From: Escherichia coli
GTDB taxonomy: Bacteria > Pseudomonadota > Gammaproteobacteria > Enterobacterales > Enterobacteriaceae
Reading direction: 5' to 3' (one strand)
Length of the DNA: 64,000 nucleotides
Assembly (NCBI RefSeq): GCF_030013595.1
Contig: NZ_CP122768.1
This document shows, in pieces, positions 16,153-21,126 of the stretch (its first letter is position 1; each line of letters opens with the position of its first letter). The notes beneath the pieces were generated by a model. That model had not been told where the DNA came from, ran no database searches, and saw nothing but the letters and a program-made list of their open reading frames with translations. Position numbers and translations under genes: made by a program.

Positions 16153-16509
16153 TTATTCAGTTCTGGATTTTGTCGCCCTGCGTATCCGCGCTTTCGCGTT
16201 ACGCTCAATCTGAATTAACTTTTCTATATTTTTCCGTCTTTCCTGTTCCTCCTGGCGCAATAGCCTTACATCATCTGCCAGTCTGGTTTCTCTTTTCGCC
16301 ACAGAGAGCATCCAGTCAAACGGCTCCACAACTGCACCGCAGATTTTACAGCGGACCTGACGCTCTTTTTCGTCAACCCGAACAGAGGCGTGATGACAAT
16401 ATGCTCTTTCCGATGGCTCATAAAGAAAATTAACCTGATTACGTGGGTCATCCTCTTTTACCGGAAATAAAACGATATTGCTTAACTCATCTTCTGGTTT
16501 TATTTCCAT
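16153..16509 (-). CDS. Hypothetical phage protein with Cys pair (possible zinc ribbon)
   Basis: Start MEIKPE with GGAGAAG RBS; CKICG motif. Confidence 0.4.
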   Translation of the reverse strand: MEIKPEDELSNIVLFPVKEDDPRNQVNFLYEPSERAYCHHASVRVDEKERQVRCKICGAVVEPFDWMLSVAKRETRLADDVRLLRQEEQERRKNIEKLIQIERNAKARIRRATKSRTE

Positions 16510-16566
16510 GCTCTTCTCCTTTGATGTGAATGCCAGCGGTAATTGAAGCCTGATAGCTAATTTCAT

Positions 16567-16989
16567 TCACAGTATCGCCTCCTGAAATTTACCCTGATAG
16601 AAAGCCAGTACACGCTGCATAGCTGCGCTCTTCCGGCACTCGCTACAGATTATGTTCTGACGCCTGTCGTAGCGGCGTATTTCTCCGTCTGGTAATGACC
16701 AGATAAGGTCCGGATCAACCACAGATGTTTTCTTCAGATTTGCCCTTGAGAGTTTTTTGCGGGCATTTTGCCAGTCCTTACGCGCCTGCGCTGACGGGAA
16801 TAACCCGTAACCAGAGTTGTATACATCGCCGCTGGCAACCAGCTCTCTTGCGAGAACGCTCATCAGATATCTTGTTGCCCCAGTTTTAGCTTCCAGTTGT
16901 CGTAACGTCTCTCGCCCGCTCTGGCGTACGAGATCAACAATCTGCCCTTTAATTTTTTCCCGCTCTTCCTGTGTAAATACTTTTGCCAT
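16567..16989 (-). CDS. Hypothetical phage protein
   Basis: Start MAKVFTQ with GGAGGG RBS. Confidence 0.4.
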   Translation of the reverse strand: MAKVFTQEEREKIKGQIVDLVRQSGRETLRQLEAKTGATRYLMSVLARELVASGDVYNSGYGLFPSAQARKDWQNARKKLSRANLKKTSVVDPDLIWSLPDGEIRRYDRRQNIICSECRKSAAMQRVLAFYQGKFQEAIL

Positions 16990-17005
16990 AAGCCCTCCCC
17001 TGGAA

Positions 17006-17731
17006 TCACTTTTCCGACACAATACGACTGGAGGAATCAACAATCTGTCGGACAATATCCCGGTGCTTGTTCAGCTCCCGCAGCGCGGCGCAGACTCGCT
17101 CCCACTTCTGGACATGACTTTTCGCCCGGCGCAGTTCGCGGTTTGCCATATGCAGCGATGGTAAAATCAGGCCATTCGCTCGCGTTTCAGTGAACGATGG
17201 CAGTGACTGCACAAGGTCCGCCACAGTTTCTGTTTTAATTTCCTCCTGTGTTGCCGCTTCCTGTACTGGTAACGCAACACCGGCTGGCTGAGGAAAGGCT
17301 TTACCAGATGTTTTCGCTACCGATACAACTTTCGGCTCTGCTGGTAAATTACCGTCCGGCAGGCAGTAACGAAATTTACCGTTCTGATTTACGCGAATCA
17401 GACGACCTTTGCTGATGGCCATAGCCAGCGATGAGTTCACCCTGCGGGAAGTAATTCTGAATATCAGTGCAAGTTCATCAGCCGCTTTAGGGCCATGCTG
17501 TTCAATCGCCTCGATCAGCATTTGCGCTGTCACTTTAGAAGCCTGTGCCACAGATGCGTTTTCGTCGGTTTGAGTCAACCACCACATCGGGCCCTTGTTA
17601 TCAGCTTCCCCGCGACGCTTCAGTTTCCACAGCTCGTTAATCGCCTCATCCCGGGTCATTCCCAGACGTGCTGCCACTTCCTGGGAAGAGGCTTTTCCCA
17701 TTGCTTTCAGTGCGTCAAAAACGGTCTCCAT
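17006..17731 (-). CDS. Hypothetical phage protein (nin/replication region)
   Basis: Start METVFD with GGGAGG RBS; 241 aa. Confidence 0.4.
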   Translation of the reverse strand: METVFDALKAMGKASSQEVAARLGMTRDEAINELWKLKRRGEADNKGPMWWLTQTDENASVAQASKVTAQMLIEAIEQHGPKAADELALIFRITSRRVNSSLAMAISKGRLIRVNQNGKFRYCLPDGNLPAEPKVVSVAKTSGKAFPQPAGVALPVQEAATQEEIKTETVADLVQSLPSFTETRANGLILPSLHMANRELRRAKSHVQKWERVCAALRELNKHRDIVRQIVDSSSRIVSEK

Positions 17732-17765
17732 TAAAATTTCCTCCCGGTAAAAATTACTTCTCAAC

Positions 17766-18431
17766 TCAAACAAAACCAGCCGCTTTCCGGCGTTCATATT
17801 CCTGTTTCAGCAACTCAATTGGCGTTGGTCCCGACGGGTGTTTGGGTGCCGCCAGTTGTCGCCGGACTGGCGGAATGCTCAGGCCATTACCAACATGCTT
17901 TGCCCATTTCGTCAGTTGCCATTCTGCAAGCCGTTTTAACTCCCCTTCGGTCATCTGGCGCTCAATCCCCTTTGAACGCATCTCGAGGCAAATGTGATAC
18001 AGCACAGGCTGAGACCACGGGTACTTATCACTTCCGTCGTATCGCCAGGACTCATTGCGCCAGCGGCGGTACTCCTCCATCACAGCATCCACCGTCAGAC
18101 CAAATGGATTGGCTCCGCTTTCCGAAATCAGCGCCACAAACTCAGCCAGGTCCGGAGGCCATGTTTCACCCGCCCGGCAGCGGTCCATGCACTGGCGGCA
18201 GACCTGCCGGATTTGCTGCTCAGTCATCGCGCCAATCTGTGCAATCCAGAGCTTCGAAGGTGCGGCCCCGTTCTTCTGGGTCCAGCGGTTCGAATAAACC
18301 TCCCCCATGAGTTCCCACAGCTTCCAGGCCGTTTCCGTCGCTGATAAATCCGTTTTCACGTTCCCACTGCTCACGTGCTGCCCGAATTTCCTGAACTGCT
18401 CGTGATGCGGTGCCACCTGGTGCTGCTGCAT
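17766..18431 (-). CDS. Replication protein P-like (helicase loader)
   Basis: C-terminal region resembles lambda P (YPWSQPVLYHICLEMR.. vs YPWKSNAHYWLVTNLY..); strong RBS AAGGGGG before ATG at 18431; start overlaps the O-like frame by about 210 nt, so start or O end is uncertain. Confidence 0.55.
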   Translation of the reverse strand: MQQHQVAPHHEQFRKFGQHVSSGNVKTDLSATETAWKLWELMGEVYSNRWTQKNGAAPSKLWIAQIGAMTEQQIRQVCRQCMDRCRAGETWPPDLAEFVALISESGANPFGLTVDAVMEEYRRWRNESWRYDGSDKYPWSQPVLYHICLEMRSKGIERQMTEGELKRLAEWQLTKWAKHVGNGLSIPPVRRQLAAPKHPSGPTPIELLKQEYERRKAAGFV

Positions 18432-19245
18432 GGTTTACCCCCTTGCTGACTGGTTTAACCTGCGCCCTGACGTGATTTACGTGACGGGCGAATTTCTGCT
18501 CCCACTGAATCTGCGTGAACACTTTCCCCTCCGCTGCCCAGTAGTCCCGGAAGGCTGCAAATTCAGCTGGTGTAAATTCCGGCTCAGGCAGAGCCACTCC
18601 CCACAGAGCAGCCCGTCGTCGAAAATCCGGCGACGGATGCCAGCCATCGGTCATCGGAAATTTCCCGATGGGTTCGCTCATGCCGTCCAGATATTCGGGC
18701 TCCGGTGTCTGCGATGGCGTACCGTTCGACTCACTGGTCGTAGCTCTCTCGCGCACGCGCGCGTTATGTGTGGGGTTTAATTCTTTATCTGTATCTTTAT
18801 CTGTCGTGACTCGTCGTGACATGTCGTGACATATGCGTGACTCGTCGTGACACCCCTCATTCTGTTTTCGTAATTTTTCCCTCTCGCGCTGCGCTCTCTT
18901 GCGCTCTGCCGGGGATTTCGCGGTTTGTGAAACGTTGCCATTGTCCTCTTTCAGTACCTGGCGTTTTTCCCATCCAGTGATTAAATCACCATCAAGTACC
19001 CGCCCCTGCATCGTCTGCAAAATTGAATCAATTACCTCTTCTGTCACGTCGAGCGCACTTGCCAAATCTTCTGTCGTGACATCAATGTGACCTCGCGTGA
19101 CATTTCGTGACGCGCTCACCAGGAGGTGGATATACACTGCCATCACTGTTGCAATTGGCTGCCCTGACACCCTGGCAATTGTTCGCCACTTAGGGTCATT
19201 TGGCATGTCATGCCATAATCTGAGCCAAGCGTTAGCCATACTCAC
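18220..19245 (-). CDS. Replication initiator O-like protein containing the origin iterons
   Basis: 341 aa ORF directly upstream of P-like gene; two clusters of GTCGTGAC-type direct repeats inside the coding sequence, as with ori in lambda O. Confidence 0.55.
   Translation of the reverse strand: MSMANAWLRLWHDMPNDPKWRTIARVSGQPIATVMAVYIHLLVSASRNVTRGHIDVTTEDLASALDVTEEVIDSILQTMQGRVLDGDLITGWEKRQVLKEDNGNVSQTAKSPAERKRAQREREKLRKQNEGCHDESRICHDMSRRVTTDKDTDKELNPTHNARVRERATTSESNGTPSQTPEPEYLDGMSEPIGKFPMTDGWHPSPDFRRRAALWGVALPEPEFTPAEFAAFRDYWAAEGKVFTQIQWEQKFARHVNHVRAQVKPVSKGVNHAAAPGGTASRAVQEIRAAREQWERENGFISDGNGLEAVGTHGGGLFEPLDPEERGRTFEALDCTDWRDD
18801..18852. repeat. Iteron cluster 1 (putative replication origin)
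   Basis: Five tandem approx 10-bp units ending in CGTGAC, preceded by an AT-rich tract. Confidence 0.6.
19070..19113. repeat. Iteron cluster 2
   Basis: Four further GTGAC-containing repeats. Confidence 0.45.
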
Positions 19246-19310
19246 CTCTTCTGATACCGAATCTTTTTACTCACGAGTTGCCGGAAGTGATTCGATATGG
19301 CTATTGTCAG

Positions 19311-19736
19311 TCAATGTACTGCCACAGCATTTCCTGCCGGGCCACCACGGTTCATCTGATTGAAACCGGCGATTGCCACTGCGACAAAATCATCAGCGTC
19401 TCTCACCAGTCGCTCCCGCGTCTCCACCAGCTCCCGAAAATAAGCTGAACTGTGGCTGCGCATTCTGGCCACCAGCAAAGGTGGCATTGCCTTTTCGATC
19501 GCTGGTAACAACGTCTGAATTTTTTCAACTGCATCAGGGGTGTCTTTCTCTACCCAGCGGAAAATTTTCTGGGTATTGCGAGCCAGGGCTTCCGGATGGC
19601 TATCGTCATACAGTTCAGGAAACGTCATACCCAACTCAAAATAAGCCTGGGTTATTCCAGCTGCTGGAACTTTTTCGCCATCAGGACGCGCCCAGGCATT
19701 CATCGCCATGCGGATGTGTTCATGCTTGATTTTCAT
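19311..19736 (-). CDS. YdaT-like protein (CII-position gene downstream of cro)
   Basis: 141 aa ORF in the position and size of Rac ydaT. Confidence 0.4.
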   Translation of the reverse strand: MKIKHEHIRMAMNAWARPDGEKVPAAGITQAYFELGMTFPELYDDSHPEALARNTQKIFRWVEKDTPDAVEKIQTLLPAIEKAMPPLLVARMRSHSSAYFRELVETRERLVRDADDFVAVAIAGFNQMNRGGPAGNAVAVH

Positions 19737-19758
19737 GAATCATTTGCCTCTTGATGTT

Positions 19759-20055
19759 TCAGGTATGATCAAATGAGGATTTGTTACTGTCATTTAGTTG
19801 CTTCACTGACATATTCTGCGAACAACATGCCGAACGTCGTAAATATGACCAGTCAATATCAGGACGAAGTTCTTCGCACAGAACCTCACCTCTTGTTGCA
19901 CGTTCAATTGCTGGACATCTCTCGGCAGGCAATTGACGTACCCCTTTGATCCATTGATTTACGCTTGGAGGTGATACACCTAAAAGCCTAGCCATTGCTG
20001 ATTGCCCACCGACAACAGCACAAGCTTGCTTGAATGAATAGTTCTCTTTTTTCAT
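19759..20055 (-). CDS. Cro-like HTH regulator (YdaS-like)
   Basis: 98 aa; divergent from repressor gene across an operator-rich gap; GGAG RBS. Confidence 0.6.
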   Translation of the reverse strand: MKKENYSFKQACAVVGGQSAMARLLGVSPPSVNQWIKGVRQLPAERCPAIERATRGEVLCEELRPDIDWSYLRRSACCSQNMSVKQLNDSNKSSFDHT

Positions 20056-20084
20056 CGAATGAACTCCAAAAACACACAGAAATA

Positions 20085-20150
20085 TTAGGCGACGCCTAAC
20101 ACAAATGTCAATAGGCTGTGCCTAATGCGATAAAGGTAGGAATTGCCTAA
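20085..20150. promoter_or_regulatory. OR-like operator cluster with divergent promoters
   Basis: Three sites matching TTAGGC-N3-GCCTAA (20085-20099 perfect palindrome; 20111-20125; 20137-20150); minus-strand TTGACA/TAATAT promoter candidate overlaps them. Confidence 0.55.
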
Positions 20151-20178
20151 TACAATGAGCATAGGAGAATATTAAGCA

Positions 20179-20655
20179 ATGCTTAGTGGTAAAGACTTAG
20201 GCCGAGCGATAGAGCAGGCCATTAACAAAAAAATCGCATCGGGATCCGTCAAATCAAAGGCGGAGGTCGCACGCCACTTCAAAGTCCAACCACCATCAAT
20301 TTATGACTGGATTAAGAAAGGCTCTATAAGTAAAGATAAACTTCCAGAATTATGGCGTTTCTTTTCTGATGTTGTTGGTCCAGAGCATTGGGGGCTTAAC
20401 GAATACCCCATACCAACCCCCACCAATTCAGATACAAAAAGTGAACTTTTAGATATAAACAACCTTTATCAAGCAGCCTCTGATGAAATAAGAGCGATTG
20501 TAGCTTTCCTGTTATCTGGAAATGCTACAGAACCAGATTGGGTTGACCACGATGTTCGCGCCTACATAGCAGCGATGGAAATGAAAGTGGGTAAGTATCT
20601 GAAAGCTCTAGAATCTGAACGGAAAAGCCAGAACATCACAAAAACTGGAACTTAA
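20179..20655 (+). CDS. Prophage repressor (CI-like, no peptidase domain; RacR-like size)
   Basis: 158 aa with N-terminal HTH-like region; flanked on both sides by the same operator motif. Confidence 0.55.
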   Translation: MLSGKDLGRAIEQAINKKIASGSVKSKAEVARHFKVQPPSIYDWIKKGSISKDKLPELWRFFSDVVGPEHWGLNEYPIPTPTNSDTKSELLDINNLYQAASDEIRAIVAFLLSGNATEPDWVDHDVRAYIAAMEMKVGKYLKALESERKSQNITKTGT

Positions 20656-20750
20656 ACTTATATGGTCTGACGGAAAACTCCTGGATTCCGTTATTTAACC
20701 CCCCATCACTTTCTGCTGTCGCCATCACCTATTAGGTTACGATCAAAACA

Positions 20751-20793
20751 TTAGGCATAGCCTATTGACAATCAATTAGGCATTACCTATAGT
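20751..20793 (+). promoter_or_regulatory. OL/PL-like: two operator sites overlapping a near-consensus sigma70 promoter
   Basis: TTAGGCATAGCCTAT and TTAGGCATTACCTAT; TTGACA (20765-20770), 17 nt spacer, TATAGT (20788-20793). Confidence 0.6.
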
Positions 20794-20892
20794 TCCAGCA
20801 TACCACCCACCCCGCCCCACAGAACGCAGGGCAATACTTCGAGTTACCAGGCAGTGGTCAGGGGTTAAGTAGCCAGCCCGAGGCGTAAGAAC

Positions 20893-21126
20893 ATGACGGC
20901 AGGGTTCAACTTTAACTATGCAGCAGGTTTTTGTTCCGCCACCCCGGCGTTAAGGGGAAATGAGGTCAGCATGGATACTATCGATCTTGGCAACAGCGAA
21001 TCTCTGGTATGTGGCGTGTTCCCCAACCAGGACGGCACGTTCACTGCGATGACGTATACCAAAAGCAAAACGTTTAAAACCGAATCTGGCGCGCGTCGCT
21101 GGCTGGAAAGAAACTCAGGTGAGTGA
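20893..21126 (+). CDS. Hypothetical early-left protein (start uncertain)
   Basis: ORF; alternative ATG at 20971. Confidence 0.3.
   Translation: MTAGFNFNYAAGFCSATPALRGNEVSMDTIDLGNSESLVCGVFPNQDGTFTAMTYTKSKTFKTESGARRWLERNSGE

Follow-up and report, generated by a model that had tools for sequence, protein, structure and literature searches.

In bacteriophage lambda, the replication initiator gene O is followed in the early operon by P, the helicase-loader gene, and the origin lies inside the initiator gene, where phased iterons in the inter-domain linker are followed by an AT-rich tract. In the Rac prophage of Escherichia coli K-12, the initiator and loader genes are ydaU and ydaV, and the operon runs racR, ydaS, ydaT, initiator, loader, and ydaW/DUF1627. 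Here, we describe a replication module on the minus strand of a Rac-like E. coli prophage, contained in a 64,000-nt stretch of contig NZ_CP122768.1 (assembly GCF_030013595.1; the whole stretch is called the window below). It consists of an initiator gene and a loader gene of the lambda P family (by Pfam and by fold), and the two share 212 nt in different reading frames. In all likelihood, both frames of this overlap are translated and under selection, and an iteron-containing origin is situated within the initiator gene. The module resembles lambda in having the initiator followed by the loader in an early operon and in the layout of the putative origin, but O and P of lambda overlap by only 4 nt, and overlaps in lambda-type loci range from 4 to 17 nt (17 nt in locus L109). 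The gene order (racR, ydaS, ydaT, initiator, P, DUF1627, and DUF977) is like that of K-12 Rac, whereas the K-12 loader YdaV is a DnaC/IstB-like ATPase and not a P protein, and ydaU and ydaV are separated by a 6-nt gap with no overlap.

The overlap spans 18220–18431, from the initiator stop codon (TGA, 18222–18220) to the first ATG in the P frame (18431), in good agreement with the roughly 210 nt given in an earlier note made from the letters alone. The codon phase of P is +1 relative to the initiator frame. The strong ribosome-binding site that had been noticed at this ATG is the Shine–Dalgarno (SD) sequence AAGGGGG (18444–18438), which is located 6 nt ahead of it and inside the initiator coding sequence (CDS). 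The initiator open reading frame (ORF) has a maximal extent of 18220..19245, with a GTG at 19245, but the ATG at 19239 is the likelier start because AAGAGG is present 5 nt upstream, homologues begin with MANAWL, and the Prokaryotic Genome Annotation Pipeline (PGAP) uses 19239 in an identical genome. The earlier note had considered three readings (a genuine overlap, an initiator extended by a frameshift, and an internal start of P) and had regarded conservation of the same overlap in related elements as the mark of a genuine feature.

Because an alignment-based scan returned only relatives with 95–100% identity, cross-species diversity was sampled by scanning one genome per species, which yielded 27 loci, 22 of them with an intact module of the same type. 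The overlap is kept in every related locus compared, 27 in total (these 22, from about 20 species of Enterobacterales, plus 2 from Vibrio phages and 3 metagenomic), with lengths of 149–230 nt, and the first of the three readings is thereby upheld. The intact modules come from Citrobacter, Klebsiella, Pluralibacter, Phytobacter, Kluyvera, Prodigiosinella, Pectobacterium, Erwinia, Dryocola, Yersinia, Pantoea, Samsonia, Limnobaculum, and E. albertii. In every one of the 22, an ATG heads the P frame with GGAGG, GAGG, or GGGGG located 6–10 nt before it, and the upstream initiator ORF, in the same relative frame, ends 149–227 nt past the P start. Vibrio phages D75 (L114, 1152–2460) and D173 (L115, 1098–2334) have the same initiator tail and an overlap of 194–212 nt, although their P proteins are only 31% identical to that described here and the upstream initiator is lambda O-like. 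The three metagenomic loci, which were found through the tail alone, share the arrangement as well. Scans of viral contigs with single Vibrio or Erwinia P proteins gave no matches. Within E. coli, related sequences are present in 2727 of 5426 complete genomes, about half.

When bacterial annotation shows a long same-strand overlap, the cause is usually an error, and this one could in principle have arisen from a sequencing or assembly indel, or from a recent frameshift, that carried the initiator past a true stop near the P start. Such defects do occur in the family: locus L004 has a frameshifted initiator gene and L100 has an indel within the overlap. An artefact is nevertheless scarcely conceivable here. 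The identical sequence is found in independent complete genomes, with 659 records covering at least 80% of the region, and the stop position and the frame of the initiator are the same in all close relatives and in distant taxa; frameshift extension of the initiator, as raised in the earlier note, is excluded on these grounds. In L100 (Leclercia adecarboxylata NCTC13032, about 2600–2690), the indel fuses the P N-terminus to the frame of the initiator tail and is followed by a 153-amino acid (aa) remnant of P; this module is either pseudogenized or affected by an assembly error. Two host labels met in the searches look doubtful: a 560-nt contig labelled Vibrio sinaloensis (L098) encodes an E. 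coli-type P with 74% aa identity, and the sequence of 'Actinobacillus phage vB_Apl-pPE4' shows 94% DNA identity to the E. coli prophage region (KU052037/PP818812 matches).

The assignment of P to its family rests on a PF06992 match of 59.2 bits (cutoff, 26; aa 56–188) and a match to phrog_109 (E = 6e-63; aa 18–220). Its AlphaFold2 (AF2) model matches the lambda P chains of 9oa1, the DnaB–lambda P complex, over 198–220 columns (E = 3e-5 to 8e-5, probability 1.0), with a high root-mean-square deviation (8–9 Å), as expected from flexibly linked domains. P is therefore placed among the lambda P-type loaders and is predicted to deliver host DnaB. In the model, aa 1–27 are disordered and the first helix of the fold comprises aa 29–46. 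In lambda P, domain I (residues 1–29), the lasso, is disordered alone, and domain II extends over about residues 30–119 (PMC12661323).

It has to be considered that P starts at an internal ATG, either Met69 (18227) or Met42 (18308), which would reduce the true overlap to 8 or 89 nt. The earlier note had placed the ATG at 18227 2 nt after the initiator stop; it actually precedes the stop by 2 nt (ATGACTGA), hence the 8-nt overlap. Internal starts are in current use: PGAP and the Rac-SA53 record begin P at Met69 (153 aa), that of PPompW begins at Met82 (140 aa), and records from other genera use the equivalent of Met42 (~180 aa). Public records thus shorten P by 41–81 residues compared with the conserved 221-aa form, and gene callers also made P too short in the Vibrio phage and metagenomic loci. 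Locus L003 (3574–4035) is among those with an N-terminally short annotation. The protein itself argues otherwise. The 22 homologues (50–80% identity) are 215–223 aa long and conserved from aa 36, and residues 36–68 (AWxLWExMxEIYSxRWxxKNGxxPSxLWIAQIG) are among the best conserved of the protein. Because these residues are conserved, the fold begins at about aa 29, and neither methionine is universal (Leu replaces Met42 in L104 and Met69 in several lineages), an internal start can be set aside as quite improbable. A 153-aa product would lack everything corresponding to domain I of lambda P as well as half of domain II, a start at Met42 would still leave an 89-nt overlap, and the SD and ATG at the head of the frame recur in all 22 diverse loci.

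Selection on each frame was assessed separately. When synonymous codons were resampled with the P protein fixed, the chance of an initiator frame without stops over the full overlap was 0.006–0.13 per locus. In the second half of the overlap, the initiator frame is open in all 19 non-redundant loci, as against 29% of equal-sized P-only control windows; multiplied together, the probabilities of the single loci give 10^-8.9. Among 38 unique close relatives, nucleotide diversity was 0.070 in the O-only region (where it peaks at O wobble positions) and 0.052 in the P-only region (peak at P wobble positions), compared with 0.022 in the first half of the overlap, where it is greatest at O wobble sites (second codon positions in P), and 0.0088 in the second half. 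Diversity in the overlap is thus 2.4–8 times below that of either flank. None of the 23 overlap variants introduces a stop, and 20 leave one of the two proteins unchanged; only three alter both, a class that makes up 49% of the possible changes.

At deep divergence, identity in the O frame was 0.327 in the first half of the overlap, compared with 0.161 predicted from P (excess, +0.166; z = 23.5), and 0.340 compared with 0.282 in the second half (excess, +0.058; z = 7.7). The P frame exceeded the initiator-based prediction by +0.135 (z = 12.8) in the first half, i.e. at P aa 1–35, and by +0.398 (z = 29.8) in the second, with control excesses of +0.03 to +0.05; the former value is a further point against an internal P start. 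An AF2 run on the tail joined by a GS linker to P, based on an alignment paired by locus, predicted the P fold with confidence and, in the tail, a helix in the first part and disorder over most of its length. Taken together, the helical first part of the tail appears to be selected as protein, and the acidic disordered second part appears to be held in frame, with few residues constrained beyond the demands of P.

Several points weigh against the explanation favoured here. We infer translation of the two frames from evolution only. The first 28 residues of P are poorly conserved, which would also suit an internal start. The second-half excess of the O frame barely surpasses its controls (+0.012 to +0.051). 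Synonymous-codon identity at P aa 36–70 is not raised at deep divergence (0.435 vs 0.37–0.47 elsewhere), so that suppression of synonymous variation, clear among close relatives, is not seen for this segment at greater distance. At P wobble sites, the zone of low diversity reaches about 90 nt outside the overlap, and recent shared ancestry may contribute to it. The EE(W/R) motif of the tail follows from the invariant Lys-Asn-Gly of P and wobble choice, as judged from codons and tail variants. Finally, the AF2 run is silent on docking between tail and P. Because codon identity at P aa 36–70 is not raised, what is claimed for the second half of the tail is that the frame is kept open, not that its residues are selected.

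These points bear on the possibility that the initiator tail is translated but functionless, a neutral read-through with selection acting on P only, to which the slight residue constraint in the second half and the mostly disordered AF2 model would both lend themselves. This is improbable: the frame is open everywhere, against the per-locus odds given above, and conservation of the first half is stronger in the O frame (0.327) than in that of P (0.28). Polymorphisms in the first half favour O wobble positions though they always change P. The tail is also retained on unrelated initiator bodies, as described below.

The overlap could alternatively serve a programmed +1 ribosomal frameshift, by which an initiator–P fusion would be made besides the separate proteins. 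P does lie in the +1 frame, the second half is very highly conserved at the nucleotide level, and one family, phrog_15931 (482 positions, 'unknown function'), spans both proteins, with positions 1–347 matching the initiator and 259–482 matching P. A fusion of this kind is nevertheless very improbable. Neither a slippery motif nor a stop-context motif was seen to be conserved, the position of the initiator stop differs between lineages, no conserved RNA structure was detected at the P start (0 pairs; z = −0.78), and P is provided with a conserved SD and ATG of its own. The family itself seems to derive from an ORF that was fused or frameshifted, so that the two proteins are conflated in it, and a frameshifted database entry such as L100 would explain it more simply.

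The initiator consists of a putative N-terminal origin-binding domain, a linker, a DnaT-like single-stranded DNA (ssDNA)-binding domain, and the 70-aa C-terminal tail. The N-domain matches a PHROG family annotated 'replication initiation protein' and shows weak matches to replisome-organizer and DnaD-like families. The DnaT-like domain scores 62.9 bits against PF17948 (cutoff, 25) and matches PDB chains of the DnaT C-domain with E-values of about 1e-19 to 1e-20 (DnaT chains, E = 3e-20); the score against the full-length DnaT equivalog NF002770 of NCBIfam is 95 bits, below the cutoff of 201, and the C-domain alone aligns. No similarity to lambda O was detected, either as a Pfam match (PF04492, Phage_rep_O) or by BLASTP against lambda O (best E = 2.4), and for this reason the protein was not placed in the O family. 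The designation 'O-like' in the earlier note would therefore hold for function, that of a replication initiator, and not for descent: when the two proteins are compared with lambda O and P, as had been proposed, P falls into the lambda P family and the initiator, with its DnaT-like domain, does not appear to be a lambda O homologue. The further proposal, comparison with related prophage copies, recovered the same junction and frame relation throughout. K-12 YdaU has a DUF1376 N-domain in common with some relatives of the module, such as the initiator of Rac-SA53, but is without the DnaT domain and without the tail. The RefSeq label of the initiator homologue in L005 (E. coli 08-00022, 1561–2595) is 'pyocin large subunit'.

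Several mutually unalignable kinds of initiator bodies are found upstream of this type of P, and all have the same tail; they include DnaT-domain proteins with various N-domains and a protein with a lambda O C-domain (L106). A profile search with the tail in 1.84 billion representative proteins returned 74 clusters, in nearly all of which the match is at the C-terminus or a few residues from it, in proteins of about 290–430 aa. The domains recognized in full-length tail proteins were DnaT (20 of 48), HTH_36 (9), DUF1376 (7), and DnaD_N (3), in addition to Phage_rep_O, DUF6291, Phg_2220_C, HNH, and others. These results suggest that the tail belongs with P and not with the initiator body. Since it rides on several bodies and always accompanies this type of P, the tail would be an adaptor by which otherwise unrelated initiators recruit the loader. 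A comparable relation is known from lambda, where the initiator C-terminus is the part tied to the loader type. The end of lambda O (...TNTDWIYGVDL) resembles that of the tail (LDCTDWRDD), a likeness that serves as a lead only.

Coding of the adaptor within the 5′ end of P would keep both partners linked through mosaic recombination. Tentatively, the overlap may thus be regarded as a portable cassette in which a docking tail of about 70 aa is coded in the 5′ end of P in the other frame, a reading we hold to be possible, though somewhat less than probable. If it is true, any initiator that recombines in frame upstream of P gains the cognate recruitment peptide, and exchange never parts the partners. 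From its distribution, the cassette would be ancient and common to Enterobacterales prophages and Vibrio phages.

Two clusters of GTCAC(G) iterons lie in the initiator gene (Table 1), one in the CDS of the N-domain and the other in that of the inter-domain linker. The repeat clusters at 18801–18852 and 19070–19113 in the earlier note are accordingly confirmed as five and four copies, respectively, with spacings of 10–11 bp; the 5′ ends of the copies are at 19111, 19101, 19091, and 19080 in cluster 1 and at 18851, 18841, 18830, 18820, and 18810 in cluster 2. They are the only sites in the window with at least four same-strand copies per 60 bp, and all but one of the window's six exact GTCACGAC octamers are within the iteron region. 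Both clusters are conserved in position in relatives with the same N-domain, while copy number shifts by whole units of 10–11 bp. Four copies make up cluster 1 here, compared with 6 in most relatives (L004, L005, L070, and others), an in-frame difference of 21 nt that alters a loop of the N-domain, and cluster 2 has 4–7 copies in relatives (L070 contains 6 and 7 copies in clusters 1 and 2, respectively). Homologous N-domains carry GTCACG, CGTCACG, GGTAACG, or CTACGTA at the same two positions, whereas unrelated N-domain types are accompanied by unrelated repeats, i.e. the motif covaries with the DNA-binding domain. These comparative data support the proposal that the repeats mark an origin inside the initiator gene, and the A+T-rich tract directly downstream of cluster 2 is its likely unwinding element. 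The lambda origin differs in having one array of four 18-bp iterons, compared with the two clusters, 229 bp apart, in this module. An alternating G/C stretch (CGCGCGCGTGCGCGAGAGAG, 18740–18769) directly follows the A+T-rich tract, and its short GC hairpins were picked up by a terminator scan on the plus strand.

The following order of events is proposed. The initiator would bind the two iteron arrays within its own gene, unwinding would probably take place at the adjoining AT-rich tract, and P would then deliver host DnaB. During expression, ribosomes translating the initiator would pass through the ribosome-binding site and ATG of P to the stop at 18220, and P would initiate independently at the ATG at 18431. 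Because no conserved RNA structure was found at the P start, P is probably initiated directly at its own SD during initiator read-through; no Rfam family was found in 16500–21000, nor was an internal promoter-like site for P found. In the first half of the overlap, the helix of the initiator tail would be the more constrained product, with P encoding a disordered N-terminal segment equivalent to domain I of lambda P. Over the second half, domain II of P would dominate, and the initiator tail would be a disordered acidic stretch whose frame is kept open. It may be speculated that ribosome traffic over the P start restrains P synthesis, because lambda P is known to be toxic (PMC4926192).

Table 1. 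Positions of the features of the replication module in the 64,000-nt window
Feature	Position	Strand	Basis
Replication initiator gene ('O-like'), 339 aa	18220..19239	-	ORF; PGAP CDS in identical genome; PHROG; Pfam DnaT
Predicted helicase-loader gene P, lambda P family, 221 aa	17766..18431	-	PF06992; phrog_109; homologues; SD and ATG; fold
Putative dual-coding overlap, 212 nt: last 70 codons and stop of initiator / P aa 1–70	18220..18431	-	
SD of P, AAGGGGG, inside initiator CDS	18438..18444	-	Similar GGAGG-like motif in 22/22 diverse loci
SD of initiator, AAGAGG	19245..19250	-	Sequence; PGAP start
DnaT-like ssDNA-binding domain, aa 194–260	18460..18660	-	PF17948; PDB DnaT C-domain
Tail segment predicted helical, ASRAVQEIRAAREQWERENG	18352..18411	-	AF2 predicted local distance difference test score 72–87; initiator frame dominates constraint
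Iteron cluster 1, four GTCAC(G), spacing 10, 10, and 11 bp, in N-domain CDS	19076..19111	-	
Iteron cluster 2, five GTCACG, spacing 10, 11, 10, and 10 bp, in inter-domain linker CDS	18806..18851	-	
Single inverted iteron core, GTCAC	19043..19047	+	
A+T-rich tract (70%), ACAGATAAAGA twice, directly downstream of cluster 2	18770..18805	-	

The prophage region is 100% identical to chromosomes of pig enterotoxigenic E. coli. The initiator gene is mosaic: 19300–18782 shows ~95% identity to phages Evi and Tritos, and the remainder matches Rac-SA53 and PPompW. The start region of P is repeated directly 20 nt upstream (18424–18460; GGTTAAACCAGTCAGCA / GGGTAAACCATGCAGCA), where the copy is without an ATG; this repeat may be a small duplication. 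A promoter-like sequence (TTGACA-18-TAATAT, minus strand, 20082–20111) in the racR–ydaS intergenic region, upstream of ydaS, is likely to be the PR-type promoter of the ydaS–ydaT–initiator–P operon. Mechanically called from the ATG at 17797, the DUF1627 ORF overlaps the end of P by 32 nt, but this overlap is probably unreal because the PGAP start of the gene is near 17731, at the ORF's second Met (MNAG...ILMETVF), in keeping with the 726-nt PGAP CDS.

The gene families and the iteron origin of the module are ordinary, and it is current annotation that the dual-coding junction contradicts: in RefSeq and GenBank, P has been stripped of the segment corresponding to domain I of lambda P and of some of domain II. 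Full-text searches of the literature open without subscription turned up no account of the overlap, and a conserved dual-coding junction of 150–230 nt with a portable tail appears to be undescribed in the searchable literature. The analysis singles out one short peptide as the putative connection between varied initiators and a loader of the P type, and it suggests how phage replication systems, modular and recombining rampantly, might still retain the specificity of their partners.

Among other systems with P-like loaders, VdhL proteins of Vibrio are virus-derived helicase loaders that are located beside lambda O-like genes and are reported to have replaced the chromosomal loaders in Vibrionaceae; the report on them mentions no overlap (PMC11087808). 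Vibrio phages D75 and D173 are similar in that a distant P-like loader is located downstream of a lambda O-like initiator. Their loaders may be related to VdhL, and the cassette may extend to these virus-derived chromosomal loaders. A search with the Vibrio-phage P returned only phage and metagenome proteins, with no named chromosomal VdhL among them.

It is rare for two essential bacterial or phage genes to overlap at length in different frames, and such cases are mostly put down to faulty annotation. Established examples of out-of-frame overlapping phage genes are D/E and A/B/K of phiX174 and Rz/Rz1 of lambda. The overlap described here resembles these in that two frames are used, a structured segment is set over a disordered one, and synonymous variation is suppressed among close relatives, and the signs of selection on both frames across very distant relatives support it as an added example of dual coding, for which a general theory of overprinting is available (PMC8227390 and PMC2268670). 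It differs from the phiX174 and Rz/Rz1 overlaps in being terminal, not nested, in joining essential partners of one machine, and in travelling as a cassette between unrelated upstream genes.

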